DNA of 64,000 nt from an uncultured Pseudomonadota bacterium (GTDB lineage Bacteria; Oederibacteriota; Muellerivitia; Muellerivitales; Muellerivitaceae): the NCBI GenBank assembly GCA_963770835.1, contig CAVYRH010000008.1, positions 96,001 to 160,000 of the forward strand, written 5' to 3'. The notes under the pieces were generated by a model. That model was not told the origin of the DNA. It searched no databases and saw nothing but the letters and a program-made list of their open reading frames with translations. Position 1 is the first letter of the stretch. Each line of letters starts with the position of its first letter. Shown one piece after another: positions 1-14,471 of this stretch. The position numbers and the translations under genes are program-made.

Positions 1-1
1 A

Positions 2-514
2 ACGCCGGGTGTCCACCGGCGCGAAGGCCGTCCTCACCTTCTCAGGATCAACGGGGCAGGTCTCGATCACGTTCCGCCGGATAAAATCGGAGCAGGCCAA
101 AAGGAGGTCCACCCGCCGGTAAAGCCAACGGTGGAGAAAATCCTTTTTCAGGATGGAGGAAGCGACGTGTTTAGAGAGGACCAGGGGGCCCTTCCAGCCC
201 TCCAAGGCCAGGGCGGGCACTACCGTCGATAAATCCCTTGAGTGGTGGAGATGGATGAGGTCCGGCGGGTCTTTCCGCAACGCTTGGCGGAACCTCCAGA
301 TGCCGAGCGGGTGAAAATGCCCGCTGAAGTGGAACGGCCCGGGGGAAAGCCCCCCCTCCACCGCCTTTCGCCCCAAAAACGAATCCGGATCGGCCCACAC
401 CGAGACTTGTTGGCCCTTTTCCCGCAAGCCGGGGGCCAGCATCAACGGGACCAATTCCATCCCTCCTTCCCCGAGGGAGGAAACGGCCTGGACGATGCGC
501 AGGTGGCTGTTCAT
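2..514 (-). CDS. Glycosyltransferase family 4 (GT-B), N-terminal part, truncated by the window edge
   Basis: Manual translation from ATG 514 (absent from the ORF track because it has no stop in the window): MNSHLRIVQAVSSLGEGGMEL...PDLIHLHHSRD...VLSKHV...VDLLLACSDFIRR; GGxE, DxIHxH and acS motifs of the GT4 N-domain. Confidence 0.8.
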   Translation of the reverse strand, partial: MNSHLRIVQAVSSLGEGGMELVPLMLAPGLREKGQQVSVWADPDSFLGRKAVEGGLSPGPFHFSGHFHPLGIWRFRQALRKDPPDLIHLHHSRDLSTVVPALALEGWKGPLVLSKHVASSILKKDFLHRWLYRRVDLLLACSDFIRRNVIETCPVDPEKVRTAFAPVDTRR

Positions 515-661
515 TTTCGAGTTTGTTCCCCTTAGGTGCGATATCCCATATTTAATTAAACGGCATTTGGGCCCGCCCATAGGTGTGGCAGGCCGGACCC
601 TTATTCAAGTCTGCCGTTTCCAATTTACACGCCGGGGCGGGGCCGGATCAATCGCCCGGCG

Positions 662-940
662 TTATTCGCCGGATGCCCGTTGAAAAAACTCCTGGACATC
701 CCGGCAGGCCTCTTCCGCGTCATCCCCTTGGAAGGTGAATTCCAATTCCGCCCCCTTGCCCGCCCCGAGCGAGACCAACCCAACGATGCTCTTGGCGTTC
801 GCCCATTTGTAACCGTTACGGACGGCAATCTCGCATTGATACCGGTTCGCGATAAGGGCCAGGTTGGGCGCGGACCTCAAATGGGGGCCCCGGGAACCTT
901 GAACGATGATCTTTTCGACGATTTCCACGCGGTTCCTCAC
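662..940 (-). CDS. HPr-family phosphocarrier, His15 and Ser46 equivalents retained
   Basis: GPHLRSA (cf. GLHARPA), ANAKSIVGLVSLGAGKG, GDDAEEA; 92 aa. Confidence 0.85.
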   Translation of the reverse strand: MRNRVEIVEKIIVQGSRGPHLRSAPNLALIANRYQCEIAVRNGYKWANAKSIVGLVSLGAGKGAELEFTFQGDDAEEACRDVQEFFQRASGE

Positions 941-1010
941 GAGCCCGGTTTACGGCCCATTCCCAAAACCAGGCCTCTTTTGCGCGCTTCGCCGCCGGTG
1001 GGATGGCTTT

Positions 1011-1193
1011 TCATTTGTTTCCTTCCCATTTCCGGGCCGAAGTTTCCTGGAGGTGAAGCCCGTTTTCCTTCTGGTCCATCAGGAAACAATCGGTGCAATC
1101 CAGGATATGGTCGGCGATGATTTCCCTTTCTTGCGCCGGCAATTTTCCGAGGATGTAGGCCTTGTATTTCTTTTTAACTTGTTCACAGTTCAT
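1011..1193 (-). CDS. Stand-alone zf-HC2 (ZAS) anti-sigma-type zinc finger protein
   Basis: MNCEQV...YILGKL...E..IADHILDCTDC = C-x(n)-HxxxCxxC; ATGA overlap with the upstream HPr-like ORF. Confidence 0.75.
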   Translation of the reverse strand: MNCEQVKKKYKAYILGKLPAQEREIIADHILDCTDCFLMDQKENGLHLQETSARKWEGNK

Positions 1194-1507
1194 GAAACAC
1201 CTCCGTTTTTAAACTGGACCCTTCCTTCTTTCGGGGCCGATGCGCTTTGGGTGATAAACCGGCTTATGCTGGAATCCCGGATGGACTTGAGGGCTTCCTC
1301 CTCGTCGATTCCATCGAGGCCCACTTCCACCCTCCACAAATCGGGGCGGATGCGGGACAGCACCTCCAGTAATTTCTTCCCGTCGATCTTAATTTCATCG
1401 TCATGGATGCTGATGTGGCAGTGAACCTCCCGGGCGATGCGGACTATGTCGGTCAAGGCCCAGGCGGGGAGCCCCGGTTTATTTTGGAGCGTTATTTTTT
1501 TTGACAT
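1190..1507 (-). CDS. Degenerate HPr-like protein lacking both phosphoacceptors
   Basis: MSKKITLQNKPGLPAWA (H15->P), IDGKKLL (S46->K), GIDEEEAL; GAGG RBS. Confidence 0.6.
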   Translation of the reverse strand: MSKKITLQNKPGLPAWALTDIVRIAREVHCHISIHDDEIKIDGKKLLEVLSRIRPDLWRVEVGLDGIDEEEALKSIRDSSISRFITQSASAPKEGRVQFKNGGVS

Positions 1508-1615
1508 TTTTTCCTCTTTTCCATGTTGGGGTTGGGAACGCGTCCGCGGATAGTTTCTTCCGGACGCGCAAAGAAAGGATCATCCCGGTGGATGACCCGG
1601 ATTTCGGAAAAAATC

Positions 1616-1972
1616 TCAGATTCGCAGGGGAATGGGGACGGTCGATGGAAAAGCCGTTCTTCCAAAAGAGGCGGGAGCCGCTTGTGCCGTCACGCGGAAA
1701 GCGAAAACGGAAAATGGGGAATTGGGAGACAATCGGGCGCAAGGCTTGAAATTGTTGAATTTATTCCCGGCTTGAAGGGATTGGCAGTTGAGCTGGCTTA
1801 AAAACCTCTTGCCGAAAGCCTGGCGGTTGGAACGGCGGAGGGTGTCTTGGGCGCCGTAATTACCGTTGGCGCGGACCATCACCATGGCCAGTTCCCGGCA
1901 GGCCAGGGGAAGCAGGGCGGCGGCCACGAGGAAAGCCAATAGGTTTTTCCGGGAAGAGGTTAACTTCGGCAT
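1616..1972 (-). CDS. LRI-stop small membrane/secreted leader protein #1
   Basis: 118 aa; hydrophobic N-terminus LLAFLVAAALLPLAC; ends PIPLRI*; clear paralog of 3554..3910; GGAGGG RBS. Confidence 0.75.
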   Translation of the reverse strand: MPKLTSSRKNLLAFLVAAALLPLACRELAMVMVRANGNYGAQDTLRRSNRQAFGKRFLSQLNCQSLQAGNKFNNFKPCARLSPNSPFSVFAFRVTAQAAPASFGRTAFPSTVPIPLRI

Positions 1973-2036
1973 ATTTTCAAACCGTCCCTCCCTAAAAGGT
2001 GGAAGCCCCGGGGTGCGCCCGGCCGTGAGGCGCCGG

Positions 2037-3290
2037 TCATCCGGCCGCCATCGCTTTCACCGGTTTCCCGTTCGCCTGGAAGGCCTCCACCGATCCGTCT
2101 CGAAGGGTCAAGAGGACCTTTAAGCCCTTCCCCGACCCGGTGAACCGGACTCCTTTCACGCCGGTATCCAGGAAGAGGGGCTTGCCCCCGGTTTCCAGCA
2201 AAAAGGCGTCCCTTGTATCGCCGACCAGCTTCACCGTGCGGCTGTTGTCGTCGCTCTGGAAGAGAATCTCACCGGCGGCTTCTTTGGGGGCGGTATAGCT
2301 GGGGGTTTCGCCGGAACGGTTATAGGGCCCCGGCCCGCCCTGGGCCTGCGGTTCCTCGCCGTTATCCAGGGGCGGGTTGTTGTAACCGCCGTCACTGTTC
2401 GAAGGCACATATTGGCCGTTTTCATTGATATAAACCGTGTTGGTCGCGGGGTTGGGCCAGTTCCAGCACCCATTGTCCCAATAGTCCCAATTGCCGTACC
2501 AGGGGTCGTTCCACCAAAACTGGCCGCCATAATACTGGGTCCAAAAGCAGCCGCCGCCGCCGTACCAGCCGTACCAGTTGCAGCCGAACCCGTCGCAATA
2601 ATTGCAATAGTTCCACCCGTTGTAGCTATGCCAGAAGTATTGGTTGCGGTTGTTTTCGGCGGTACGGTTGAACCCGTTGAGCTGGGACTTGAAGTTCCGG
2701 TCCCCGGTAATGGAGTTCATTTGGTTGCGCACGAAGCCGGAGTTCATCTGGCGGGGCGAGAAGGCCGAGCCCGAAAGGCGCTGGCCGTAGGGGCCCCGGG
2801 AGGGCATCCGCGCCGAGGAACGCTGCATATTCCCCGGGAAGGACCGGCCGTTGGAGCGCCCGGTGAGGGAATTCCGGTTGAAGAACTGGGAACCCATGGA
2901 ACGGTTCCCGTTGAAGTTATTGCCGCGATAGTTCCGGTTGAAGCCGTTGGTGTTTCCATAAGCCCGGTTGAAAGACTGGTTCCGTCCTCCCCAAAAGCCC
3001 CGGTTGCCCCGGAAAGAAGACCCGTAATAGGAACGGGAACTTCCCCGGTAAAAGTTCCCAAAACCCCGGTTGCCGCCGCTGAAGCCCCCTCGAAAACCGC
3101 CTCCCCAGCCGCCATGGCCGCTCCAGGTGGAGTTGCCGTCGCTGAAACCCCCTCCGCCGCCACGGCTGCCGCCGCTGAAGCCCCCTCCGCCGCCCCCACG
3201 GCCGCCGCCCCCGCCCCCTCCGCCATGGGATGGCAAGGCCGCCGCCGGAAGCAACAAGGTCAGGGAAAAGATGAAGATTAGTTTTTTCAT
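2037..3290 (-). CDS. Secreted Gly/Arg/Asn-rich low-complexity protein with a Trp/Tyr/Cys-rich domain, paralog A
   Basis: Sec signal MKKLIFIFSLTLLLPAAA; poly-Gly/RGG tract; YFWHSYNGWNYCNY...DPWYGNWDYW; C-terminal domain shared with 7477..8763. Confidence 0.8.
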   Translation of the reverse strand: MKKLIFIFSLTLLLPAAALPSHGGGGGGGGRGGGGGGFSGGSRGGGGGFSDGNSTWSGHGGWGGGFRGGFSGGNRGFGNFYRGSSRSYYGSSFRGNRGFWGGRNQSFNRAYGNTNGFNRNYRGNNFNGNRSMGSQFFNRNSLTGRSNGRSFPGNMQRSSARMPSRGPYGQRLSGSAFSPRQMNSGFVRNQMNSITGDRNFKSQLNGFNRTAENNRNQYFWHSYNGWNYCNYCDGFGCNWYGWYGGGGCFWTQYYGGQFWWNDPWYGNWDYWDNGCWNWPNPATNTVYINENGQYVPSNSDGGYNNPPLDNGEEPQAQGGPGPYNRSGETPSYTAPKEAAGEILFQSDDNSRTVKLVGDTRDAFLLETGGKPLFLDTGVKGVRFTGSGKGLKVLLTLRDGSVEAFQANGKPVKAMAAG

Positions 3291-3353
3291 GTCGCACCGC
3301 CTAAAGGATTCGGGCCCTTCGTACCGTTCGGCCCCAATCCCACCTCTTACTGT

Positions 3354-3383
3354 TTGGACGTTCCAGCCTGTAAAAATAATTCC
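3354..3383 (-). promoter_or_regulatory. ECF sigma-like promoter upstream of Gly-rich paralog A
   Basis: Minus strand GGAATT-N17-CGTCCAA; same spacing and a shared TTTTTAC spacer core upstream of paralog B. Confidence 0.45.
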
Positions 3384-3477
3384 GCCTTAAACCCGCCCTT
3401 CTGGATTCGGAAAATTTTATTTTTGGATCTCACGGATTTTTTCGGTTTGTTTAAAAATCACTTCATCGAAAAGGGGA

Positions 3478-3527
3478 GACGCGGAATGATCCCTTGAAAA
3501 AAACACGGACAAGGAATCATCCGCGTC
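3478..3527 (-). other. Hairpin just downstream of the LRI #2 stop
   Basis: gacgcggaatgatccctt ... aaggaatcatccgcgtc near-perfect inverted repeat. Confidence 0.6.
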
Positions 3528-3553
3528 GGGCAATCAGTATTTCGGGGGAATTC

Positions 3554-3910
3554 TCAGATTCGTAACGGGGTAAGAACAGCGGCTGGAAAAGCCCCTTCCC
3601 CGAAAGCGGCGGGAGCCGCCTTTGCCGTGACCAACTCGGCAGAAAGGGACAAGGGGGTACGGGGGGAGAACCCGGTGCAAGGCTTGAAATTCGTGAATTT
3701 GTTCCCGGCTTGGAGGGATTGATTGTTGAGCTGGCTCAAAAACCTTTTGCCGAAGCACTGGCGGTTGGACTGGCGCAAATTATCTTGGGTGCTGTAACCG
3801 GCGTTGGAGCGGATAAGCACCATGACCAGCTCCCGGCAGGCCAGGGGGGGCAGCACGGAAAGGACTATTAAAACCAGCAGGTTTTTTTGAAAACCCGTTA
3901 ACTTCGTCAT
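3554..3910 (-). CDS. LRI-stop small membrane/secreted leader protein #2
   Basis: 118 aa; LLVLIVLSVLPPLACREL; FGKRFLSQLN shared with #1; ends TPLRI*. Confidence 0.75.
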   Translation of the reverse strand: MTKLTGFQKNLLVLIVLSVLPPLACRELVMVLIRSNAGYSTQDNLRQSNRQCFGKRFLSQLNNQSLQAGNKFTNFKPCTGFSPRTPLSLSAELVTAKAAPAAFGEGAFPAAVLTPLRI

Positions 3911-4140
3911 GATTTAACCCTACTCTTCCGCCCGGTAAGTTTCAAGGCCACTCCCGCGCGGCGGGCCACTCGAGACCACAAGTCGAGTGGGGTGGTTGCC
4001 CGCGCAAATTTATTAAGAAATCTGTAGAAAAGGCCGAAGAAAGGCCTGATTGGCATGAACTGCCGGTTGTGAAAGCTTCTTTACAATGGGCCATAATCTA
4101 AAGGCCGGGCCTCTTTATTCCGAAAGGAATCGGGGCGGAT

Positions 4141-4821
4141 TTAGTGCGGCGCGCAATAAAGCACCTGGGTCGCGAGGCAGGTGCCGCAGGTGTCATAGGC
4201 GCAGCCCAGGTAGGCGGCCCAAGAAAAGGCCCCCTCCATCAGGCTTGCCTTGGATTCGCAGTCGGTGAGCACGGTGGAGCAGGGCCCCTCGCAGGCGGAT
4301 TGCAGGGAACTTTTCATGCAGGACCAAAAGCCGTGGACGGCCTGCGTCTGGTAACCCGCCGGGGTCTTGACTGCGGTAAATTCCTTGACCATCAAGGGAT
4401 CCCGGTCCTGGGCGACCTCGAGCGCCCGGTAGGTGTTGACCCCGTCCGAGAGGTATTCCAGCGCGGCCGCGTCCGGGGACCCCACTTGGTCCAGGTCGTA
4501 AACGCGCCACGTCATGGTGACGGCCTTCCCGTCGCGGGTGACCGTCCCCCCCACGCCCCAGTCCCCGTTGGACCAGCGGCTGGTGAGGGTGTAACCCATG
4601 GACGCCGCACCCGCGACCAGGGCTTTCCAGGCGTCATCCAACGCCATCATGGTCGTATAATCGCTTTTCAACTCATCCAGCCCAAGGGTTTGCAACGGCC
4701 CATTCCCGCCCGATTGCGCGCAAGCTTGGGACGCAACCCACAGGGCGAACACCGCTCCCCATGCCCAAAAGGATGCCCCCTTCGCGGGGCCGCGACAGCT
4801 TCTGCGTTTAATGAAATCCAT
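4141..4821 (-). CDS. Secreted protein with an 8-Cys C-terminal domain (possible bacteriocin-like precursor)
   Basis: Signal peptide ending ACA; C-terminus GFWSCMKSSLQSACEGPCSTVLTDC...GCAYDTCGTCLATQVLYC; AAGGAGG RBS. Confidence 0.6.
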   Translation of the reverse strand: MDFIKRRSCRGPAKGASFWAWGAVFALWVASQACAQSGGNGPLQTLGLDELKSDYTTMMALDDAWKALVAGAASMGYTLTSRWSNGDWGVGGTVTRDGKAVTMTWRVYDLDQVGSPDAAALEYLSDGVNTYRALEVAQDRDPLMVKEFTAVKTPAGYQTQAVHGFWSCMKSSLQSACEGPCSTVLTDCESKASLMEGAFSWAAYLGCAYDTCGTCLATQVLYCAPH

Positions 4822-5204
4822 GGCGAACCTCCTTGGCTCAAAGTCTACTTTTATTGGACACCCGCGAATTCCGGGAATTCAAGGCGGTGCATGCGGAAAG
4901 AGGGCCGCCTTCGGAACGTTCTTCCCATGTTTATTGAATCGGCTTATGAGAATTAGGCTGACGCCTTTTCGACACGGGTCGAAGCGCGGGCGGGAAGCCA
5001 AGCGAATGGGTATGAGTGGCCCGGCCATGAAACTGGCGGCCCCACACCCCTTGTGGGGCTGTTTCATACCATAACCCAGGGTTATCTTCCGGACGGGGGC
5101 CGGGTTTCAACTGTCTTAAAAAGGCAAATCTCCTTATGTTTAACCCAATTGCGTAACCTTTGCGGCCCATCGGCCGTCTAAAATAGGCAAAAGGAACGGT
5201 ATTA

Positions 5205-5561
5205 ATGGTACTGCAACCCCAAAACCGAGCCCAAACCCAACCCTCTTTTTTTAAAGCCGGGGCCGCTTTCCTCGTCTTCATCATCACCTTCTTATCCTTT
5301 GTTCCGGGCGGGTCCATCTCGCTTAAAGTTTCCACTATTTCCCATTCAAGCATCCCATCCACCGGCCACTGGCGGGCCAGCCGGCGCATTTATCCCAACC
5401 AGCAGGCCTCCAGCAAATCCGCAGTGGAAGTTCCCTTCAACTTCTATCCGCCCCAAACCTCCCCGGAAAGGATTTTCCGGGTGGCGCAAGACCGCAATGC
5501 CGCCGTTCCCCCTTTGAACCGCCGTTCCCCCGCCGTGCTTTTCTCCGTCTTACGCATTTAA
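5205..5561 (+). CDS. LRI-stop small membrane/secreted leader protein #3
   Basis: 118 aa; TM AGAAFLVFIITFLSFV; Pro-rich tail ending SVLRI*. Confidence 0.65.
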   Translation: MVLQPQNRAQTQPSFFKAGAAFLVFIITFLSFVPGGSISLKVSTISHSSIPSTGHWRASRRIYPNQQASSKSAVEVPFNFYPPQTSPERIFRVAQDRNAAVPPLNRRSPAVLFSVLRI

Positions 5562-5580
5562 TCTAACCCGCCGTTCCCCC
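5500..5580 (+). repeat. 13-nt direct repeat CCGCCGTTCCCCC x3 straddling the LRI #3 stop
   Basis: Exact copies at 5500-5512, 5519-5531 and 5568-5580. Confidence 0.85.
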
Positions 5581-5661
5581 GGGCATTTAAAAACCGCCCA
5601 CCCCTTGTTTCCGATTTTCCGTTTTTAAACATTTTAATTTTTACAACTGAAGGAGAAACCC

Positions 5662-5835
5662 ATGCGATGGAAAGAAATACTGATCGGCGCCGGCATTTAC
5701 CTGTTGGTCATCCTGTCGGGTTACGAAGTCCCTTTTTTCATCCATCTTGTTAAAGCCCATTGCCAAACTCTTATCGCGTTCGGAAAAGAAGAACGAGCGG
5801 TTTGGCGTTTCGCGGTTCACAGCTTCGGGCTTTAA
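5662..5835 (+). CDS. 57-aa small membrane protein (below the ORF-track cutoff)
   Basis: AAGGAG RBS then MRWKEILIGAGIYLLVILSGYEVPFFIHLVKAHCQTLIAFGKEERAVWRFAVHSFGL*. Confidence 0.65.
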   Translation: MRWKEILIGAGIYLLVILSGYEVPFFIHLVKAHCQTLIAFGKEERAVWRFAVHSFGL

Positions 5836-5905
5836 CCTCGGGCTAAAAAAACCAACCTACAACGCGGCCGGCCCCTTAGGAGCCGCCGCCAGAAAGGAAA
5901 AAAAC

Positions 5906-6559
5906 ATGAATTTTTATATCTCAATCTCCCAGCTGATCCAAGCCGCCGAGGGCCTGGAAAAAAACCTGAGTCTCCTGGCCGAAAGGGCTTTCCGGGTCTG
6001 TCCCCGGGATGCCCGCGCAAACCGGGATCTTCTGGGGCAATGCGCGGAGCAAGTGGGGGCAGCCAGGGAAACCTTGGGAAAGAAGGTCCTCCTCAGCAAG
6101 ACGGCGCTGCGCCACGCGGCCATGCTTTCCCAAATTTTCGGCCTTTGCTTCCGCCGGATGGTTCTCCTGGGGTCCACCGTGGCGGGCATCGAAAAGGAGG
6201 ATGGGGAATACGCCCAAACCGTCCTGTATTTATTCTCAGGAGCCCACCGCCACTTTGTCCTGTTCCAGGAAACCCTGGCCAAGCTGACTTGCGTTCCCCT
6301 GGCATTGGAATTTCAGCCTCCCGCGGATCAAACGGAAAGCGCCATGGGTGTTTTCCAGCGGGAGGAATCCTACCGCCGGGAGATGCTGGGCCTTTTGGAA
6401 AAAGCCCTCGAGCTTTTCAACGAGGAGCGGGAATTGTATGACTCGTTCCAATCGATCAGGCAGGATCTTTTGGAAGCGAAGCGAAAAACGAGGCGGCTCT
6501 TAATCGTCCAGGCGGCTCCCAAAGCCGTCCCGCCTTCGCCGGTATTGGCGCGGAGCTGA
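5906..6559 (+). CDS. Alpha-helical hypothetical protein, possibly a degenerate ferritin/rubrerythrin-like bundle
   Basis: AAGGA RBS before ATG 5906; amphipathic helices; HRHF and EESY segments but no intact ExxH pairs. Confidence 0.55.
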   Translation: MNFYISISQLIQAAEGLEKNLSLLAERAFRVCPRDARANRDLLGQCAEQVGAARETLGKKVLLSKTALRHAAMLSQIFGLCFRRMVLLGSTVAGIEKEDGEYAQTVLYLFSGAHRHFVLFQETLAKLTCVPLALEFQPPADQTESAMGVFQREESYRREMLGLLEKALELFNEERELYDSFQSIRQDLLEAKRKTRRLLIVQAAPKAVPPSPVLARS

Positions 6560-6611
6560 CGAGCCGTCTGTCCCTGAAGTGGTCGTGAAGTGAAGAAATT
6601 TATGTATGAAA

Positions 6612-6660
6612 AAACGGCGCCCCGGGATGTGGAATCCATCCCAAGGCGCCGTTTCCTTTT
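6612..6660. terminator. Probable bidirectional terminator between convergent genes
   Basis: aaacggcgcc-ccgggatg...catccc-aa-ggcgccgttt stem with A/T-rich flanks. Confidence 0.6.
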
Positions 6661-6672
6661 AACCCTCCGAAA

Positions 6673-6933
6673 TTAAGCAGGGGTCTTCACCGCCAGATCC
6701 ACCAGTAGTGCCATGATGGCTTCCCGGGCATCCCCTCCCTCGGCGGTGATTTCGAGATTGTTACCCTTGGCGGCAAGCAAACCGATGATTTCGACGAAAC
6801 TTTTGGCGTCGACAACCACCTTTCCTTTTTGAATCTGTATTCGGGATTTAAACCGGGATGCGGTCTTTTGAAACTCCGACAACGTCCTTATTTGAAACTT
6901 AGATGGGTGTGGAATAGTGACTTTTTTAACCAT
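6673..6933 (-). CDS. Crh-like HPr paralog (His15->Gln, Ser46 retained)
   Basis: SKFQIRT at the GLHARP position; VDAKSFVEIIGL; EITAEGGDAREA; AAGGAG RBS. Confidence 0.75.
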   Translation of the reverse strand: MVKKVTIPHPSKFQIRTLSEFQKTASRFKSRIQIQKGKVVVDAKSFVEIIGLLAAKGNNLEITAEGGDAREAIMALLVDLAVKTPA

Positions 6934-7058
6934 TGGGAGGCTCCTTTATTGAGTCTTTTTATTTGGATTTTTCGCGTAACACGCATGGGAAACGGCATAA
7001 AAATACACTAGTGCGGGGTTTGTCCGCGGAACATCAGCCACTCAATTTTGGGGAAGCC

Positions 7059-7430
7059 TCAAATGCGCAAGGGAGGAGCGGAACAACTGGGATGAACTGG
7101 TACAAACCGTGGATTAAATAAGGCGCCGTTTTTTTCATCCCCTTCCGGATTGGTGGGTTTTAAGGAAACCCTTGAATCCGAATAAGGCCTAGGGGGATTG
7201 TGGAATTTTGAATCGAATTCTTTGGCTTGGGCGTCAAGTAAATGAATCAGGGTTTTTCCAAAACGCCGGCCTTGGCCGGTGTTGGAAAAAGAAGCTTGTG
7301 AAAATAAGCGGGGACAGTGAAGGCTCAAGCTGAGAAGCTGCCGGCAGGCAAAGGGCATCAGGGTCGCCGCCAGGAGACCCGTTAGGAGAGTACGCCGTAA
7401 AAACACCCATCGTCCCATCCAGACACCCAT
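7059..7430 (-). CDS. LRI-stop small membrane/secreted leader protein #4
   Basis: 123 aa; LLTGLLAATLMPFACRQL and RRFGK shared with #1/#2; ends APPLRI*. Confidence 0.7.
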   Translation of the reverse strand: MGVWMGRWVFLRRTLLTGLLAATLMPFACRQLLSLSLHCPRLFSQASFSNTGQGRRFGKTLIHLLDAQAKEFDSKFHNPPRPYSDSRVSLKPTNPEGDEKNGALFNPRFVPVHPSCSAPPLRI

Positions 7431-7476
7431 CCTGCTTTACCCTTTTGTGGGAGCATTCATCAAAATAGTTTTCGAC

Positions 7477-8763
7477 TCACGTTTTCACGCTGCCGGCCGG
7501 TGTACCGTCCGAATTGAAAGTCTCAAAAGTGCCGTCCTTGAAGATCAATAAAATCTTCGTCGGCCCGGTGCCGGTACTGGAAAATTTCACTTCCTGTACG
7601 TTGGTATCCAGGTAAACCGGCTTGCCGGAGGCTTTTGAGTTATTCAGGTCATAAAGAAAAGCGTCTCCTGTGGCCGAAACCGCCACCTTGACCTTTCCAT
7701 CCTGGCTCACAAAATCAATTGGTTCGTTGGAGGCGTTCGCGGCGGAACCGTTGGGCTCGATATTGTTCGTTAGCTTTTGTTCCTGGTTGTCCCCGTAAAC
7801 CGGGCCGCCGTAATCATCTTGGTTGTAGGCTGAGGAGCCGTTGCCGTTGCCGGCGGAACCGCCGGCGTTGCCGTCGCCCTGGGCCGGAGTATATTGGCCG
7901 TTGTTGTAGACGTAAACGTTCGTGGTCTCGGGGTTCTGCCACCACCAGTTATTACCGTACCAATAGTCCCAGTTTCCATACCAGGGGTCGTACCACCACC
8001 AATTGCCGGCGTAATACTGGCTCCAGAAGAACCCCCCGCCGCAGTTCCAGCCCCACCAGCAATTTCCGAAGCGGTCGTAGTAGTTGCAATAGTTATAGCC
8101 GTTCCAAGAGTGCCATAAATATTGGTTGGTCCTTCCGGCGATCGGGGTGGTGGCGGCGACTTTGGCCATGAAATTCCGGTTACCCGCGATGGCGGCCATT
8201 TGGGTCCGAATCGCGGGGCTGTTCATTCCGCGAGGGGAAACCACAGAAGAAGAAAAAGACCGGCCTGCGGGCCCTTGGCTGGGCAGCCCCGGCGCGGAAT
8301 GACTGAGATTGTGAGAAAGCATCGCCGAGGAAGACAGCGGCCGGGGAATGCTGGTCACTCCCATGCGTTGCAGGTTCTGCGGAACGACATTGGAATGATA
8401 AGTGTTGGAGCCGTTGTAACGGGAATTCGTGGAGAAATTGAAATGGTGGAAGGTCCCGCTTCCCTGGTAGGACCCATTGCCGCGGTAGCCGCGGTTGTAA
8501 TTGTAGGTGCGGCCTGAGGACCGGTAATAGGCCCTTCCATTGGAATAGTGTTGACCGTGATACACGGTGTCGTTGGAAGTGTTGGAACCGGTGGACCCTC
8601 CACCGCCGCCAGCATTACCGCCACCGCCACCCCCTCCGCTGTAACCACCACCGCCGCCGGCGTTGCCGCCACCGCCGCCCCCGGACAATCCCTCGTTATG
8701 GGCCCAAACCAACCCGTAAGGAATCAATGCCAGGATCACTACCACCATTATTGTCTTTTTCAT
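7477..8763 (-). CDS. Secreted Gly/Asn/Tyr-rich low-complexity protein with a Trp/Tyr/Cys-rich domain, paralog B
   Basis: Signal MKKTIMVVVILALIPYGLVWA; poly-Gly; YLWHSWNGYNYCNYYD...DPWYGNWDYW; C-terminal GKPVYLDT...DGTFETF; GGAGG RBS. Confidence 0.8.
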   Translation of the reverse strand: MKKTIMVVVILALIPYGLVWAHNEGLSGGGGGGNAGGGGGYSGGGGGGGNAGGGGGSTGSNTSNDTVYHGQHYSNGRAYYRSSGRTYNYNRGYRGNGSYQGSGTFHHFNFSTNSRYNGSNTYHSNVVPQNLQRMGVTSIPRPLSSSAMLSHNLSHSAPGLPSQGPAGRSFSSSVVSPRGMNSPAIRTQMAAIAGNRNFMAKVAATTPIAGRTNQYLWHSWNGYNYCNYYDRFGNCWWGWNCGGGFFWSQYYAGNWWWYDPWYGNWDYWYGNNWWWQNPETTNVYVYNNGQYTPAQGDGNAGGSAGNGNGSSAYNQDDYGGPVYGDNQEQKLTNNIEPNGSAANASNEPIDFVSQDGKVKVAVSATGDAFLYDLNNSKASGKPVYLDTNVQEVKFSSTGTGPTKILLIFKDGTFETFNSDGTPAGSVKT

Positions 8764-8820
8764 GAAACCACCTCCGGTAAAGCCTTCCCCACGCCGTCTA
8801 CTTTGAAATCCTTACACTAT

Positions 8821-8850
8821 TTTGACGTTTCAAAGGGGTAAAAAGGTCCC
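8821..8850 (-). promoter_or_regulatory. ECF sigma-like promoter upstream of Gly-rich paralog B
   Basis: Minus strand GGGACC-N17-CGTCAAA. Confidence 0.45.
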
Positions 8851-8940
8851 TGCCTAAGGGGCATAACAACAATCCGTCCCTCGAAACGCCGGTTTTAACC
8901 ATCCAACCAACACTCAATCCTCTGAAAATCGAATATATAC

Positions 8941-9615
8941 TCAATTTTCAGTTTCTTCGGAAATGATCCCCTCCGCCGCATCCAATAATCTCAAGGGCTC
9001 AACACACAAGGGATAATCCGTATCGAAAAAAGCGCATCGGATGATCCCTTGGGAGCTGATTCCGTATATCGCCGGAACCGGAAGGACATAAAGGGTGTTG
9101 CCCGTGTATTCCCTTAAATGAATCCCCGCCCTTCGAAGAGTTTTCGGGTTGATCTGGAAAGCCAATCCGAACCTTCTCGTGACATCCATAATTCTATCGC
9201 AAAACAAGGGAAAGTTGAGGTGGTCCCGGTCCTCCGTCTCCTGGAGCTTTGCGGGTTCATCCGGCGAAACGGCGAGGACTTGGAATCCAAGACGGGCCAG
9301 GCGGGGCTCAATCCCGGCTAATTGCTCCAACTGTTCATTCGCGAAAGGAGACCATCCTCCCTGGTAAAAGAGGATGAAAGTACTCTTCCCGCGAACCAAT
9401 CCCTCGAAATCCACCGCTTTCCCATCAGTGGACCTTAAAGTCCCGAAAGGCAGGTCATCCCCGACGCCAAGTGGAACTACGGACTGGGGGCTATGGGCAA
9501 TCATCTTTTTCGGCTCCACCCCGCCCCACATTCCATCTCCATCCCTTGCCAGGGCCCCGTTGGCCACGCCCATGAAAACGAAAAGGAAGCAGGCCGTATA
9601 AATTTTTATTTTCAT
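8941..9615 (-). CDS. Exported AhpC/TSA (peroxiredoxin-like) protein with the active-site Cys lost
   Basis: Signal peptide; VGDDLP; FYQGGWSPFANEQL (cf. FYRGxWCPxC); LAVSPD; LPVPAIY. Confidence 0.75.
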   Translation of the reverse strand: MKIKIYTACFLFVFMGVANGALARDGDGMWGGVEPKKMIAHSPQSVVPLGVGDDLPFGTLRSTDGKAVDFEGLVRGKSTFILFYQGGWSPFANEQLEQLAGIEPRLARLGFQVLAVSPDEPAKLQETEDRDHLNFPLFCDRIMDVTRRFGLAFQINPKTLRRAGIHLREYTGNTLYVLPVPAIYGISSQGIIRCAFFDTDYPLCVEPLRLLDAAEGIISEETEN

Positions 9616-9716
9616 CCCAACCTCCCGGCCCCCGGACGAACCCGGCGTCGTTCCCCAAACCCTCCATTATTCATATTCAAAATCCGAACAATCTGTTTCA
9701 ACCCTGTCCGCTTTAG

Positions 9717-11198
9717 TTATTTTACCGCGTCGGACGTTCCGCCCCCTAAAAGGTACTTCTCCCCCATCGCCGATAAAAGTTGCGTTTTAGCCTCGGCCGT
9801 TTGAAGGCCGACGTTCACCATGTCTTTCAAGGCCTGCTGAAGGTCCGAAAGGGGCCCCAGGAAGGCCAGGTATCTCTGGCGGGCCAGGGCCGCGGCCTTT
9901 TGAGCCTGATCCTGTTCCACCGACAAGGTTGCCAGGTCCTCGCGGGCCTCTTGCATTTGTTCCAGGTAGCGGACGTTTAAGTCGTCCAAAACCAGCTGGT
10001 CGGCGGAAACCTCTGCTTGCCGGGCCTGAGTCTCCGCCCGCGCCGCCTTTTCCTGGGCGTCGATGCGGAAGCCCTCGAAAATCGGCAGGCTGACACCCAC
10101 GAACAAGGAATAGTCCTGGGAGCCCACCAGGCGGGTATCGCTTAAATAGCCGGCGCCCCCGGCCACCTCCAAAACCGGGAGGTTCTCGGCGGAATACTGG
10201 GCAGTCGTCTCGTTGGCGGATTTGGTTTCCAATTCCGCTCCCGCCACCAGGGGATTCATCCCCGGCACCGTCAGGTTCGCCAGGTCCGCTTCCGACAACT
10301 CGGAGGGCGCGGGGCAGGAAATGCCCTTGGCGTCCAGCCCCGTCAAGAGAGCCAGGCGTTCCAGGGTTGCTTGGTACTGGCGGTTGAAGTCCGAGGCCTT
10401 CATGGCCGCGTCGGCCAACTGGTCGTCGATCAAATAGCCCTGCACTTGCGAGTACTGGCCGTTACGGACGAACCGAGCCACGGTGGTCTTGATGCCGGTG
10501 AGTTCATCGGCCAGGGCCTGCCACGCGTCCCGCTCCCCCCTTTGCCGCACCGCCTCCAGGTAAAGGCCCAGGGCATGTTCGTCCACCAGCTCAGCCTGGA
10601 ATTTCGTCCTTTGCCGGCTGGCGTCGTATTCGTAGTGGGCGGCGGACGACTGGTGCCAGATGGATAAGTCCAGGAGATCCCATTTGGCGTAGGCCCCGGC
10701 GGCGGCGCCCTGGCGGTAAGGAGAGGCCACCAGGCCTGGAAAACTGTTCAATCCGGAAGTGCCGAAACCCGAGGCCGATCCCGGGAAGCCGGTGGAATCC
10801 ACCGCATCAGCCCCCAGGTCCGGGTAAAAGCCCGAATCCGCGACCCGGGAGAATTCCCGGGCTTCGTTTTCGCGCGACGCGACGGCCTGGAGGGCGGGGC
10901 TTGTTTTTTCCGCCAGGCGCATGGCTTCGCCCAGGGTCAGGACTTTCCCAGGATTCTCCTGTGCGGTGGCAATCAACGGCAAAAGCAAAAAGAAGATTCC
11001 ACCGCCAAGACGCCAAGACGCCAAGAAAAATCTTTTCTTAAAAAACACACAATATCTAAAAACATGGTTTCGAAAAAATTCAACAAGGGATTCTGTTTTA
11101 GTTTTGAATTTTCGCCTCTCTTGGCGTCTTGGCGTCTCGTGCTTTTTACTGCCCTTGGCCGAAGGCCAATGGGTGGCGGTAGCTGTTGTCTTTCTCAC
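9717..11198 (-). CDS. TolC-family outer membrane efflux protein
   Basis: LTLGEAMRLAEKTSPAL, YPDL, SLPIFEGFR, A..RY..G motifs; follows two RND genes; N-terminal extension contains a palindromic insert so the start is uncertain. Confidence 0.85.
   Translation of the reverse strand: MRKTTATATHWPSAKGSKKHETPRRQERRKFKTKTESLVEFFRNHVFRYCVFFKKRFFLASWRLGGGIFFLLLPLIATAQENPGKVLTLGEAMRLAEKTSPALQAVASRENEAREFSRVADSGFYPDLGADAVDSTGFPGSASGFGTSGLNSFPGLVASPYRQGAAAGAYAKWDLLDLSIWHQSSAAHYEYDASRQRTKFQAELVDEHALGLYLEAVRQRGERDAWQALADELTGIKTTVARFVRNGQYSQVQGYLIDDQLADAAMKASDFNRQYQATLERLALLTGLDAKGISCPAPSELSEADLANLTVPGMNPLVAGAELETKSANETTAQYSAENLPVLEVAGGAGYLSDTRLVGSQDYSLFVGVSLPIFEGFRIDAQEKAARAETQARQAEVSADQLVLDDLNVRYLEQMQEAREDLATLSVEQDQAQKAAALARQRYLAFLGPLSDLQQALKDMVNVGLQTAEAKTQLLSAMGEKYLLGGGTSDAVK
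11003..11137. repeat. REP/MITE-like element: 19-bp inverted repeats built from (CGCCAAGA)n around an AT-rich spacer
   Basis: agacgccaagacgccaaga (11008-11026) is the exact reverse complement of 11119-11137. Confidence 0.75.
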
Positions 11199-14100
11199 TT
11201 CGAATCCTCCTTGTAGTAGGCGCTGTGGGGATCCTGGGGATCCAAGGACGCCGTGTGTGCGGCCTTATTCTGGTGCCAAAGGGCGTAAATGACCGGCATA
11301 ATCAGAAGCGTCGTGACCGTGGAGCCGCAAAGGCCCCCAATAACCCCCCGGGCCAGGGGCGCGCTTTGCTGGCCGCTGTCGGAGAGGCCCAGCGCCATGG
11401 GAATCATGCCCACCACCATGGCGATGGCCGTCATCAAAACCGGCCTCAGGCGGCTTTGGGCCCCGTACATGGAAGCCTCCCAGGAATGCCATCCCGCCAG
11501 CCGCGTCATATCCGCGAAAGTTACCAGGAGGATCGAGTTGGAAACCGACACTCCCACGGCCATGATGGTTCCCATGAAGGATTCGATATTCAGGGTCGAA
11601 CCCGTGAGGTAAAGAAGGGTCAAGGCCCCCGTGAGAACCGCCGGGACGTTGGAAAGAATGATGAGCGAGATGGGAAAGGACTCGAAGGTACCCGAAAGCA
11701 GCAGCAGCATGACCACCACCGCGAATAGCAGGCCGGCCGAAAGCCCTACAGTCATTTGTTGGAGGGTGGCCATCTGTCCCCGCACGTAGATCTGGACTTC
11801 CTTAGGCGCCGAGCGGCGAATAGGCTCCAGTACTTTATCCAAGGCCTCCGACGCGTGCCCCATGTCCAGCTTCCATAGATTACCGGTCACGCTGGCCATG
11901 CGGGCCATGTTGTAACGGTCGTATTCGGCCACTTCGGTGCCCGGTTTCACTTGGGCGAAGGTGTCCAAGGGCAAGGAGCCCTCGTTGACAGGGATAGGCA
12001 TTTTTTCCAGGTCCCCGACGGAATGAATGTCCCGTTCCGGCACTTCCACCTGCACTTGGTAATTCACGCCGTCCTTAGGGTCTTCCCAGTAATTCAACAG
12101 GGTGAAACGGCTGGACGAAGTCACGGGCACGAGGGCCCTGCCCACGTCGGTGACGTGCACGCCCCGGATACCCGCCTTTCGGCGGTTCACGTCCACGTCC
12201 AGGGTGGGGTATTCCCACGGCTGGCCGTATTGAAGGTCCCGGACGGAGGGGAGCGAGGCGGCCAGCGCCTGCTGGATTTGGGCGGCCACCTGCCGGTCGT
12301 GGTCCAGGTTTTGGCCGTTCACGTCCACCTCCACCTGCGTGGGCGAACCCTCGCTCATGACCTTGTCAATGAGCCCGCTGGCCTCGAAGGAAACCTCCAC
12401 GTCGGGCAGTTCCCGCTTGAAGACCGTCCTCAGTTTTTCCGCCAGTTCGGCGGTATTGACCTTGGACTCCTTTTTAAAAGCCACCTGGAGAACGGCCTCT
12501 TGGGGTCCGGAGGTCCAAAGGAAAATGGTGTTGATGGCGTATTGGGTGGGCTGGATCCCCACATAAGCCAATGTGGTACGCAAGCTATCGGCCCCTGCGG
12601 CCTGTTTGATGAGGTCAATAGCCTTGAGCAGGATTTGCTCGGTCTTGTCGATATGGGTTCCGGTGGGCGCGCGCAGGCGGATTTGAAGCTCATGGCTTTC
12701 CACTTTCGGGAAGATTTCCCGCCCGACACGGCTTCCCACGGTGAGGATCACGGCGGCCGCCAACAAGCCATAGCCTCCAATGAACAACCACCGCTTTTTG
12801 AAGATAAACTCCAGGAGCTTGCCGTGGACCCGTTTCATCTTACTGATTACCGTGTTTTTCCCAGGCGCATGGCCCTTTTCCTTTTCCAAAAGCCAAGTTG
12901 CCAGGATGGGCACCAGGGTCATGGAAAGGAAAAAGGCCCAGATGATGGAAAACCCGACCGCGAGCGTCAACGGCACAAAAAGGGCCTTGGTGATTCCCCC
13001 CATGAAAAAGGCGGGGATGAACACGGCCACGATGCAAAGCATGGTCACCAGGGCGGGGCTGAAAATCTCGCTGGCGCCGTTCAAGGCCGCCTCGGGCAGC
13101 CTTTCCCCCTTTTCCATGCGCACGTGGATGTTTTCAATCGTGACGGTCGACTCGTCCACCAGAATGCCGATGGCCAAGGCCAGGCCTCCCAGGGTCATGA
13201 TATTGATGGTCTGGCCGGCGGCCTTGAGGCTGGCAATAGCGCCCATGACAGCCAAGGGAATATTGATGATCACGATGAGGGCGCTGCGCCAGTCACCCAG
13301 GAACAAGAGGACCATCAGCCCCGTCAGCAAGGCCCCCATGGCCCCCTCAAAGGCCAGGGAGGAGATGGAGTCCTTGACGGCGCCCGATTGGTCGAATTCG
13401 TAGCTTATTTTGATGTCGTCCGGCAGGACATTCTGGAACATAGGAAGGTGGTCCTTGACGTCCTTCACCACCGCGAGCGTCGAAGCGTCGGCGCGCTTCA
13501 AAACCGGAAGGTAGATGGTCCTTTTGCCGTTCAAGAGGGCGTAGCCCACCTGGATGTCGGTGGCGTCCTCCACGGTCCCGACGTCCCCGATGAAAACCGT
13601 CGGGTAAGTCCCCAGGCGGATGGGAACCTGGAGCAGCTCGTTGATGTCCCGGACGATGGAATTCATGGGCACGGCGGGATACATATCGCCGATCCTGACG
13701 TTCCCCGCCGGCTCGATCTGGTTGGATTTGGCCAGGGCCTGCACCACGTCCTCCGGGGAAAGGTTGTAGGCCTGGAGCTTCTTGGGATCCACCCGAATGA
13801 CGATGGACCGGGGGCTGGAACCGAAGGAGTCCGAAACCAAAAGGCCAGGCAGTGTGGCCACCATCGGGCGGACATAGTTGAGGGCGTAATCCTCGACCTG
13901 GCCCAAGGGGCGGGTTTCGCTGGAGAAAACCAGGTCCCCCACGGGCAGGTTGCCGCTGTCAAAGCGCAGGAGAAGGGGCGGAAGCGTCCCGGTCGGCATG
14001 TTCTTGAGGGCGCGCATGGAGCGGGACACCGCCTCGCCCATGGCCGCGGACATGTCGGTGTCCGGGTAAAACTCCAGCTTGACCAGGGTCATGCTCCCGA

Positions 14101-14404
14101 TGCTCTTGGAGGTGATGTTCCGGATACCGTTGACGTAGGAAAACTGTTTCTCGAAGTTATAAGCGATGAAACTCTCCATTTGGGCCGGATCCAGCCCGCC
14201 ATAAGGTTCCACCACGTAGATCTGGGGCGTGCCCAAGTGGGGAAAGATATCGAACTGCATGTTGAGAAGGGACCAGGCGGCCCCCAGGGCCACGGCCGCG
14301 GCCAGGACCATGATGGTGATGGGGCGGCGCATGGCCAGCTTGACCATCCAGACACGCAGGACGCGTTGGATCATCAACTTTTGAAGGTTCTTAAGGGTCG
14401 TCAT
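11195..14404 (-). CDS. RND efflux permease (AcrB/CzcA/MdtBC superfamily), copy 2
   Basis: 1069 aa; MRRPIT, GILVDESTVTIENI, RLRPVLMT, APLARGVIGGL. Confidence 0.95.
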   Translation of the reverse strand: MTTLKNLQKLMIQRVLRVWMVKLAMRRPITIMVLAAAVALGAAWSLLNMQFDIFPHLGTPQIYVVEPYGGLDPAQMESFIAYNFEKQFSYVNGIRNITSKSIGSMTLVKLEFYPDTDMSAAMGEAVSRSMRALKNMPTGTLPPLLLRFDSGNLPVGDLVFSSETRPLGQVEDYALNYVRPMVATLPGLLVSDSFGSSPRSIVIRVDPKKLQAYNLSPEDVVQALAKSNQIEPAGNVRIGDMYPAVPMNSIVRDINELLQVPIRLGTYPTVFIGDVGTVEDATDIQVGYALLNGKRTIYLPVLKRADASTLAVVKDVKDHLPMFQNVLPDDIKISYEFDQSGAVKDSISSLAFEGAMGALLTGLMVLLFLGDWRSALIVIINIPLAVMGAIASLKAAGQTINIMTLGGLALAIGILVDESTVTIENIHVRMEKGERLPEAALNGASEIFSPALVTMLCIVAVFIPAFFMGGITKALFVPLTLAVGFSIIWAFFLSMTLVPILATWLLEKEKGHAPGKNTVISKMKRVHGKLLEFIFKKRWLFIGGYGLLAAAVILTVGSRVGREIFPKVESHELQIRLRAPTGTHIDKTEQILLKAIDLIKQAAGADSLRTTLAYVGIQPTQYAINTIFLWTSGPQEAVLQVAFKKESKVNTAELAEKLRTVFKRELPDVEVSFEASGLIDKVMSEGSPTQVEVDVNGQNLDHDRQVAAQIQQALAASLPSVRDLQYGQPWEYPTLDVDVNRRKAGIRGVHVTDVGRALVPVTSSSRFTLLNYWEDPKDGVNYQVQVEVPERDIHSVGDLEKMPIPVNEGSLPLDTFAQVKPGTEVAEYDRYNMARMASVTGNLWKLDMGHASEALDKVLEPIRRSAPKEVQIYVRGQMATLQQMTVGLSAGLLFAVVVMLLLLSGTFESFPISLIILSNVPAVLTGALTLLYLTGSTLNIESFMGTIMAVGVSVSNSILLVTFADMTRLAGWHSWEASMYGAQSRLRPVLMTAIAMVVGMIPMALGLSDSGQQSAPLARGVIGGLCGSTVTTLLIMPVIYALWHQNKAAHTASLDPQDPHSAYYKEDSK

Positions 14405-14471
14405 GGGTGCACTTCCTTTCCCCGCCGGGGAACGCCCGACCGGAGGTTGGATGGGAAAAACCCACCCTTTC

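Follow-up and report, generated by a model that had tools for sequence, protein, structure and literature searches.

Leader ORFs ending in Leu-Arg-Ile-stop recur ahead of HPr-like, RND and other operons and may act as translational attenuators

Introduction

The window analysed here, a stretch of 64,000 nucleotides from an uncultured bacterium, carries the same minus-strand order twice: an ECF-type promoter, a gene for a secreted, Trp/Tyr-rich protein (WYC protein), a short ORF ending in Leu-Arg-Ile-stop (LRI ORF) and an HPr-like gene. The initial annotation described a duplicated module and proposed a signalling cassette linking secretion or envelope state to HPr-type phosphorelay regulators. 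The question is which element of this block is the recurring unit, and what it does. All ORFs of both copies were found where they had been annotated, as were the additions to copy A: an LRI ORF in front, and a zf-HC2 gene and a second HPr gene behind. The features are as follows.

8819-8850, minus: predicted ECF-type promoter, copy B; -35 GGGACC, 17 nt, -10 CGTCAAA; matrix score 16.5
7477-8763, minus: WYC protein B, 428 aa; ORF of no Pfam or PDB family
7059-7430, minus: LRI-stop leader B, 123 aa; alternative start 7406; dN/dS 0.28 against the G002 orthologue
6937-7060, minus: spacer B; predicted pairing of the anti-SD (7060-7052) with the HPr-like SD (6944-6937)
6673-6933, minus: HPr-like B; His15 replaced by Gln, Ser46 kept; dN/dS 0.16
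5152-5183, plus: predicted ECF-type promoter of the plus-strand leader; matrix score 18.4
5205-5561, plus: LRI-stop leader, 118 aa, heading the next two ORFs
5662-5835, plus: 57-aa membrane ORF
5906-6559, plus: 217-aa protein of no known family
3554-3910, minus: extra LRI-stop leader, 118 aa; 64% identity to leader A
3352-3383, minus: predicted ECF-type promoter, copy A; -35 GGAATT, 17 nt, -10 CGTCCAA; matrix score 16.8
2037-3290, minus: WYC protein A, 417 aa; dN/dS 0.31 over the C-terminal half
1616-1972, minus: LRI-stop leader A, 118 aa; dN/dS 0.59 against the G001 orthologue
1502-1618, minus: spacer A; predicted pairing of 1618-1606 (stop and anti-SD) with 1514-1502 (SD and AUG of HPr-like A)
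1190-1507, minus: HPr-like A; His15 replaced by Pro, Ser46 by Lys; dN/dS 0.17
1011-1193, minus: stand-alone zf-HC2 protein, 60 aa (Pfam PF13490); overlaps the HPr-like A stop by 4 nt
662-940, minus: HPr paralogue; His15 and Ser46 both kept
17950-18294, minus: LRI-stop leader, 114 aa, heading two RND genes, one TolC-type and one peroxiredoxin-like gene
36478-36813, minus: LRI-stop leader, 111 aa, heading a 325-aa protein of no known family with a signal-peptide-like start

Age and promoters of the repeated block

The two copies are old paralogues. Identity between A and B is 37% for the WYC proteins (362 columns), 24% for the leaders (54 columns) and 20% for the HPr-like proteins, and at the DNA level only 241 bp align at E<0.001. 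Such low identity rules out a recent tandem duplication of the module. Decay of either copy is also ruled out, dN/dS being below 1 in both, which indicates purifying selection. A Pfam scan of 52 window ORFs identifies PTS-HPr in all three HPr ORFs and zf-HC2 in 1193-1011, gives no match for the WYC or LRI ORFs, and finds no EI, EII or HPrK among the 52, in line with the annotation.

The ECF-type promoters begin as annotated, with -35 elements at 3383 and 8850 and the -10 CGTC at 3360 and 8827. They were scored with a matrix trained on relatives only, and both copies were recovered; in the relatives, 22 of 29 WYC genes have the -10 site ahead of them. The motif lies ahead of 22 of 71 leaders compared with 39 of 3,136 genes, and the other top-scoring genes encode mostly exported proteins, judged by their N-termini. 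ECF sigma factors of the sigmaM, sigmaW and sigmaE type, which respond to envelope stress, recognize an AAC-type -35, a 16-17 nt spacer and a CGTC -10, and the leader/WYC motif resembles this consensus. The genome has 20 matches to the sigma-70 family, none of which could be paired with the motif; no sigma gene was recognized on reading 30 loci, and a scan for sigma-70 promoters stayed at chance level.

The LRI-stop leader family

The recurring unit of the block is the LRI ORF. Nine LRI-stop leaders occur in this genome and 74 were collected across its bacterial family, a set gathered partly by the LRI ending itself. The bare ending is no commoner than chance (13 of 22,428 ORFs, against 5-9 for permutations of the tripeptide). 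The family is real, because a profile of 65 relatives that lacks the last 15 residues still places the nine LRI-stop ORFs ahead of all others among the 26,417 ORFs in the genome. A search of 1.84 billion proteins gave 56 matches, and the LRI ending is present in 48 of the 49 that were retrieved. Values of dN/dS in nine leader pairs range from 0.22 to 0.59.

In an alignment of 25 leaders (23% mean identity) the sole invariant columns are L, R and I, and the middle is unconserved; constraint falls mainly on the final three residues, and a milder preference for Pro/Ser is seen at -6 to -11. Among the 74 leaders every Leu and every Arg codon (six each) is used, along with two Ile codons and three stops, and selection therefore acts on the peptide. 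An N-terminal hydrophobic segment, either cleavable or anchored, follows a basic N-region in the aligned leaders and lies 80-99 residues (median 93) from the C-terminus in the 74 collected.

Behind the leaders lie operons of several types, with HPr-like, RND, TolC and CusCBA-like genes and small membrane ORFs among them. Leaders of a Cys-rich subfamily, in which CxxC and CC are invariant and PP near the end is usual, precede TolC/CusA-type genes. The window holds three LRI ORFs beyond those first annotated (5205-5561, plus; 18294-17950 and 36813-36478, minus). The operon behind 18294-17950 leads into copy B, and an orthologous leader precedes an RND gene at two other loci (L016, L024); orthologues of 5205-5561 are found at L026 and L028.

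With these queries, the leader profiles gave no match in 43 near-complete genomes of the phylum outside family f1, and the Cys-rich profile gave only two weak partial matches. Over 99 phylum genomes, a pattern of motif plus anti-SD was so degenerate that its matches beyond the family could not be interpreted, and a metagenome scan with motif and anti-SD gave no leader among the 80 matches listed. There was no LRI-stop leader in four plasmid RND/TolC loci whose upstream ORFs were read, and no Rfam match at the gathering threshold in positions 1-20000 of the window.

Spacer RNA and control of the next gene

Pairing of the next gene's Shine-Dalgarno (SD) sequence peaks at +1 to +12 after the leader stop (0.54 against 0.02). 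At least four SD bases pair with this post-stop segment in 33 of 54 leaders and in 6 of 200 ordinary gene pairs. With a simulated ribosome footprint in place, opening the next ribosome binding site costs at least 2 kcal/mol less (more than 2 in each case counted) for 36 of 74 leaders, against 15 of 142 controls. As the leaders are related to one another, P values for such comparisons are too optimistic. The RNA signal is weaker at HPr genes: the pairing test is passed by 6 of 17 HPr-led leaders and by 27 of 37 others, and in only 5 of 21 HPr-led cases does the SD pair best with the post-stop segment. Covariation is modest: double changes affect 5 of 9 pairs of a helix picked by eye in one subfamily, and 21 of 500 shuffles equal this.

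In both spacers the pairing is predicted in the MFE and centroid structures. That of spacer A encloses two hairpins (z -2.87), with a duplex of -16.5 kcal/mol and a footprint gain of 4.0 kcal/mol. Spacer B has a duplex of -19.4 kcal/mol, a footprint gain of only 0.7 kcal/mol and a whole-segment z of only -0.06, no stabler than shuffles. Leader 5205-5561 gains 4.3 kcal/mol, yet its post-stop segment does not pair with the SD. Leaders 3910-3554, 18294-17950 and 36813-36478 show no footprint gain; the first lies outside the SD-unmasking geometry in a calculation that mis-picked the start.

The position of the anti-SD under the terminating ribosome favours a cis-acting leader over a signalling partner as the reading of the LRI ORF. 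The LRI-stop leaders are probably translational attenuators, in which a predicted arrest at the stop codon unmasks the start site of the next gene.

An anti-SD behind the stop is compatible with plain termination without arrest. Plain translational coupling, with the terminating ribosome briefly melting the hairpin and LRI serving as a C-terminal tag for a protease or other binding partner that would clear or exploit the peptide, would need just a terminating ribosome to account for the anti-SD position, and the constraint in the last three residues with its weaker Pro/Ser bias suits a C-terminal recognition motif. However, it leaves unexplained both the fixed distance from hydrophobic segment to stop, a feature reported for the arrest peptides MifM and CliM (PMC13183943), and the placing of the CxxC subfamily before metal-efflux genes. 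We regard it as unlikely.

It is a good deal less probable that the leaders stall the ribosome chiefly to set transcriptional read-through, as CruR or TnaC would, with SD masking secondary. The extra leader 3910-3554 fits such a scheme: a terminator-like hairpin and T run (3527-3502) follow it 27 nt later with no near gene, and WYC A lies 264 nt on with its own promoter, an arrangement that recurs at L021. A terminator-like hairpin also occurs in the leader A spacer (1598-1577), and many HPr-led spacers lack a strong anti-SD. Yet the region shows no enrichment of terminator-like sites, with 15 where 17.9 would be expected, and the family-wide signal is the SD pairing just after the stop.

The WYC and HPr-like proteins

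The order WYC, LRI ORF, HPr-like is kept intact in seven related FCPU426 genomes (G001, G002, G004, G020, G021, G043, G044) and occurs twice here, as a dedicated trans-envelope chain from WYC protein through LRI peptide to a PTS-type phosphorelay would predict; the near confinement of one HPr clade to LRI-led operons (below) also fits. The neighbourhood check, however, shows that in loci selected for WYC only 5 of 20 evaluable WYC genes have LRI and HPr genes behind them and 15 do not, and 4 of the 6 WYC paralogues of this genome lack them. Conversely, LRI-HPr pairs occur without an upstream WYC gene at six loci (C8:173571, L040, L042, L044, L048, L050), and LRI ORFs also head RND, TolC and other unrelated operons. 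The cassette is not obligatory, and the WYC protein appears to be a co-regulated exported passenger rather than a required partner of the leader and HPr-like protein.

The phosphorelay part of the proposal fares no better. Of the HPr-like proteins encoded immediately after a leader, 17 of 21 lack His15, compared with 5 of 25 others; those without it cannot therefore be phosphorelay carriers. The proteins without His15 group in a single clade that is nearly confined to LRI-led operons, and within this clade position 15 varies freely (Q, P, E, Y, R, N). Both HPr-like A and B lack His15, and A also lacks Ser46. With the leader middle unconserved as well, the signalling chain is about as doubtful a reading as read-through control. 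The conserved gene order, the ECF-type promoters and dN/dS below 1 in both copies support the initial proposal, and it is plausible that the state of the envelope or of export is linked to HPr-fold proteins; the dedicated cassette and the phosphorelay are not supported.

The genome does encode EI and HPrK, on another contig (C19), which rules out a missing PTS core. Crh of Bacillus subtilis is an HPr paralogue with Gln at position 15. HPr-like B resembles it in fold, Gln15, retained Ser46 and HPrK in the genome, whereas HPr-like A has lost Ser46 too; the Crh-like combination of absent His15, present Ser46 and HPrK in the genome is found for copy B only. Copy B could thus still be an HPrK substrate like Crh, and copy A could not. 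In the zf-HC2 protein, C3, H29, C33 and C36 are invariant in 22 homologues and match the Cys plus HxxxCxxC zinc ligands of the zinc anti-sigma (ZAS) domain. A complex prediction for HPr-like A with this protein (score 0.01, mark 0.32) weighs neither way.

WYC protein B has a signal-peptide-like start, a Gly/Asn-rich disordered region, a Trp/Tyr-rich beta-meander and a C-terminal domain. This domain resembles two propeller blades (Z 8-9, rmsd 2.2-4.4, 67-84 aligned), a generic arrangement matched by two-blade parts of many propellers and by H. pylori IceA2. Searches with WYC gave nothing meaningful in Pfam, NCBIfam or PDB sequences, no Foldseek match in the PDB at E<=0.001, and only unnamed clusters in the ESM Atlas, at 0.90 or below. 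A single-sequence fold of the C-half was set aside (pLDDT 41).

The last alternative likens LRI to the C-terminal strand of the genome's large secreted proteins, many of which end in [VI]LR, and makes it a signal for export or sorting. It draws on VLR and ILR being the two commonest endings of genes above 150 aa (18 and 12 of 2,404), on the common C-terminal domain of those proteins and on V or I at leader position -4 in 44 of 74, but is barely tenable, since the leaders lack the LASGLYY-type core of that domain and have an extra invariant Ile and an anti-SD needless for sorting.

Comparison with known leader peptides

The putative LRI stall motif was not found in the arrest-peptide literature searched, subscription journals and bioRxiv supplements being outside its reach. 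According to PMC13183943, MifM of Bacillus subtilis and CliM of Clostridia are YidC-monitoring arrest peptides with an N-terminal hydrophobic segment, a conserved spacing to the C-terminal motif and a stem-loop that masks the SD of the next gene, and when C. difficile CliM stalls, it is the stop codon that occupies the A site. As described there, they share with LRI-stop leaders the hydrophobic segment, fixed spacing and SD-masking stem-loop (predicted here). They differ in motif and in the genes behind: no secA, secDF or yidC lies directly behind LRI leaders, which number nine in this one genome, head unrelated operons and in many cases follow an ECF-type promoter. Arrest is here predicted from anatomy.

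The exported uORFs before secA or secDF (PMC10987492; LudP preprint, bioRxiv 10.64898/2026.10.26.761930) also arrest through their last residues and stop codon, and so resemble LRI leaders, although the latter precede other genes. In the secA/secDF uORF study 'LRI' is absent from the main text, and 'FCPU426' and 'LRI-stop' from its 12 supplements.

CutF/CruR/DUF2946 and CutF-like leaders, also CzcI, are under 150 aa, with an export signal and an SD-shielding stem-loop upstream of OEP/RND genes (PMC9973294 and 10.1101/2025.02.05.636593). Like them (PMC9973294), the Cys-rich FCPU426 subfamily sits before efflux genes. Neither the window leaders nor any of 19 Cys-rich members matches DUF2946 in Pfam. 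The invariant element of LRI leaders, unlike that class, is LRI at the stop; they lack the RAPP/PPP end, and PP within 15 residues occurs in only 24 of 74. PP together with a Cys motif is found in 17 of 74 and in none of the window's leaders, from all of which CxxC, CxxxC and CC are absent (His-only motifs were not scored).

A model and its implications

If the leaders are attenuators, an ECF sigma factor would transcribe WYC, leader and HPr-like gene as a single message under envelope stress, and the hydrophobic segment of the leader would engage the Sec/YidC machinery. Efficient insertion would pull the chain free and let the hairpin re-form (off); with slow export the stall would last longer (on), which is how MifM and CliM work. 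The HPr-like outputs may act by binding rather than phosphotransfer. The sensed signal is a guess, because no operon here controls Sec/YidC, unlike those of known export-monitoring leaders.

A broader reading, possible though doubtful, is that the bacterial family has made the single termination-arrest motif LRI-stop into an all-purpose plug-in switch, with as many as nine uses in a genome. A membrane-export checkpoint would thereby stand inside an ECF envelope-stress regulon, releasing a phosphorylation-dead HPr clade and free cytoplasmic anti-sigma domains, while the CxxC branch would sense metal for efflux pumps. In the CutF class, proline motifs serve to control metal genes. Each known secretion-coupled arrest peptide governs one or two export genes, and we know of no second, translational gate inside the operons of ECF envelope-stress regulons.

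With only three invariant residues and the stop, many operon types and dozens of natural variants, LRI leaders are well suited to testing how termination can be blocked by a short C-terminal sequence. The HPr clade without His15 offers another lead. If the attenuator reading is true, arrest-peptide control reaches from export housekeeping to general stress signalling, and screens limited to sec/yidC neighbours or PP motifs would overlook whole classes.

The repeated module

Both copies of the module lie on the minus strand of the window, which belongs to contig C8 of a genome of 4.58 Mb, and each runs from an ECF-type promoter through a secreted Gly-rich, Trp/Tyr-rich protein (WYC) and a short ORF with an N-terminal hydrophobic segment and the ending Leu-Arg-Ile-stop (LRI leader) to an HPr-like gene:

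Copy A
3383-3352 (-), ECF-type promoter
3290-2037 (-), WYC
1972-1616 (-), LRI leader
1507-1190 (-), HPr-like
1193-1011 (-), zf-HC2
940-662 (-), HPr
Copy B
8850-8819 (-), ECF-type promoter
8763-7477 (-), WYC
7430-7059 (-), LRI leader
6933-6673 (-), HPr-like

The repeated module is a genuine feature. All ORFs named in the initial annotation are found in the window, Pfam backs three HPr-fold proteins and one zf-HC2, and the promoter coordinates are exact, scoring 16.8 (copy A) and 16.5 (copy B) with a matrix trained on relatives alone. Judged by sequence identity (WYC 37%, HPr-like 20%, and 24% for the leader, where the comparison covers only a short stretch), the copies are old paralogues. Neither of them has decayed, since every component finds its nearer orthologues elsewhere, at dN/dS values of 0.16-0.59. 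A copy in a related genome (L028, G001:C175) does have its leader and HPr gene broken by stops and frameshifts.

WYC homologues are present in 24/24 genomes of its FCPU426 family, 1/1 in the order and 1/15 other genomes of the phylum searched, with several per genome. WYC has no family match in Pfam, NCBIfam or PDB sequences and 63 homologues, one of which is labelled Elusimicrobia; its predicted fold (mean pLDDT 81) opens with a helical lead-in, continues as a beta-meander rich in Trp and Tyr and closes with a C-terminal domain resembling two propeller blades. Upstream of WYC relatives, CGTCTAA and an AAC-type -35 stand 16-17 nt apart, this -10 site preceding 22 of 29 relatives.

The WYC>LRI>HPr order is conserved but optional. 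In loci chosen by WYC score alone an LRI ORF follows 6 of 20 evaluable genes, and LRI plus HPr only 5 (one gene, too close to a contig end, being excluded); in a second set of 11 WYC genes, 3 have the LRI ORF and 2 have both. The genome has six WYC paralogues, and LRI and HPr follow none but the two in the window. The proposal of a signalling cassette linked to HPr-type phosphorelay is partly right: the conserved gene order is supported, whereas a dedicated cassette and a phosphorelay are not, His15 being absent from both HPr-like genes. The presence of WYC in the module is put down to co-regulation by the ECF-type promoter.

Several other genes may be recorded here. At 18294-8941 (-) an LRI leader stands ahead of two RND permease genes, followed by one gene of TolC type and one that is peroxiredoxin-like, and this block leads straight into WYC copy B; leader>RND order recurs in loci L016 and L024, and RND/TolC>WYC order in L012, L017 and L024. 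Beyond the His-containing HPr of copy A, a gene of 383-405 aa, glycosyltransferase-like as judged by eye, runs from 495 (-) out of the window; in G001, too, it comes after the module. A 226-aa protein at 4821-4141 (-), with a signal-peptide-like start and Cys-rich C-terminus, is present once in the genome and was assigned no family in the Pfam scan of window ORFs. Eight copies of one repeated gene (G000:C4:729847, C4:81420, C26:863302 and five more), transposase-like judging by dispersal, each lie 48 nt behind one of the top-scoring ECF-type promoters.

The leader as the recurring unit

The recurring unit is the LRI ORF, of which there are nine in the genome, six of them inside the window. The raw number of LRI-ending ORFs is close to chance; with a profile of 65 relatives lacking their last 15 residues, these nine are the top nine among 26,417 ORFs. 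At E<=0.1 the profile has matches, a few of them weak, in 26/31 family genomes, and among near-complete genomes in 13/16 of the family vs 0/43 others of the phylum. A search of 1.84 billion protein representatives gave 56 matches, with the LRI ending in 48 of 49 retrieved.

Selection on the leader is at the level of the peptide. In 25 aligned leaders (mean identity 23%) only the L, R and I columns are invariant, and the 74 distinct leaders, a set gathered partly by the LRI ending, use all Leu and Arg codons and three stops. The distance from the end of the hydrophobic segment to the stop is 80-99 residues. The ECF-type motif precedes 22/71 leaders vs 39/3,136 genes, and leaders directly behind WYC mostly have no promoter motif of their own.

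What follows a leader varies: 21 of the next genes are HPr-like, and others encode exported proteins (TolC/CusA-type and related), RND pumps, small membrane ORFs preceding LysM proteins, and more. The first gene behind many leaders is a short ORF with a single hydrophobic stretch and no family match (window 5662-5835 (+), L035, L067, L070, L071, L085, L086); after it comes the gene of a LysM protein, of a diverged HPr or of a 217-aa protein. The 217-aa protein (window 5906-6559 (+), G000:C26:253936-254652, L014, L026) has no match in Pfam or NCBIfam, and in G020 lies between a zf-HC2 gene and a His-containing HPr.

A Cys-rich subfamily of 19 leaders, with CxxC and CC invariant (LTPCxxC, CC and a further C; L036:1414-1767 = G000:C26:396413-396766, alignment A2), precedes TolC/CusA-type and related exported-protein genes, has no ECF promoter ahead of it, and is found before TolC/CusA-type operons in 23/30 family genomes. 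It is the best candidate for a metal-sensing leader. The nearest language-model neighbours of one member are unnamed Acidobacteriota clusters (0.96-0.97), then DUF6769 and DUF8199, a lead towards a range beyond the family. Candidatus Manganitrophus plasmids (L125, L278, L279) carry an unannotated hydrophobic Cys-rich ORF ahead of a TolC-CusA operon, seemingly frameshifted in 3/3 records; another frame ends LHRTLLL-stop and is possibly an analogous leader.

The LRI leaders would work in the manner of MifM, CliM and CutF (PMC13183943, PMC9973294, 10.1101/2025.02.05.636593, PMC9426467) and of stop-dependent uORFs (PMC10987492). By those classes' own tests, however, LRI leaders are not members, having no sec/yidC target, DUF2946 match or RAPP; the CutF-like rule holds partly for the Cys-rich branch, PP and Cys motifs occurring together in 17/74 leaders. 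The LRI-stop motif was not found in the open-access literature searched. Separately, some 40 large proteins on many contigs (window 51791-48717) share a C-terminal domain with a LASGLYY-type core and the ending [VIL]LR/K, weakly matching FlgD_ig and Por_Secre_tail and likely to be a lineage-specific secretion signal.

Predicted pairing at the leader stop

An anti-SD stretch, complementary to the SD of the next gene, follows the leader stop. In 54 of the 74 leaders (gap 75-135 nt, clear SD), predicted partners of that SD cluster just past the stop, between +1 and +12 (peak 0.54, vs 0.02 for 200 ordinary gene pairs put through the same procedure), and at least 4 SD bases are paired in 33/54 vs 6/200, statistics that treat related leaders as independent, which they are not. 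This stretch is covered by a ribosome whose A site is occupied by the stop codon. A simulated footprint lowers the cost of opening the following RBS by >2 kcal/mol in 36/74 leaders vs 15/142 controls. In a 15-member subfamily the SD helix is the consensus structure, with double changes at 5/9 pairs, a level equalled by 21/500 shuffles.

The signal is weaker ahead of HPr genes, where 6/17 leaders pass (mean duplex -7.9 vs -5.0 kcal/mol). Both window spacers are predicted to fold with anti-SD:SD pairing; the footprint gain is only 0.7 kcal/mol for copy B and nil for three window leaders.

HPr-like outputs and a proposed mechanism

The genome has eight HPr-fold genes, with EI and HPrK on contig C19. 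His15 is absent from the three directly behind leaders and kept in the other five; over all loci it is absent from 17/21 leader-led HPr proteins vs 5/25 others, these five being two fragments, one contig-end gene and two genes further down leader-led operons. Full-length His-less proteins fall mostly in one clade (FastTree support 0.89). The copy B protein retains Ser46, which copy A lacks along with His15. A 60-aa zf-HC2 gene lies behind the His-less HPr in 7/30 loci and elsewhere in the rest. Stand-alone zf-HC2 proteins of 50-90 aa (L253-L277) occur in 21/31 family genomes, their genes often adjoining a putative sfsA or pilin-like genes.

The main rival, plain coupling plus a C-terminal tag, is unlikely. 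What the analysis shows is the anatomy, selection acting on the peptide, the spacing, where the anti-SD lies, the promoter motif and the loss of His15. The mechanism that we favour, with moderate confidence, is as follows. An ECF-type sigma factor would drive transcription of the operon and the leader would engage the membrane; the ribosome would stall at LRI-stop until released by pulling, and the SD of the next gene would be exposed during the stall. The non-phosphorylatable HPr-fold proteins so made may then act by binding.
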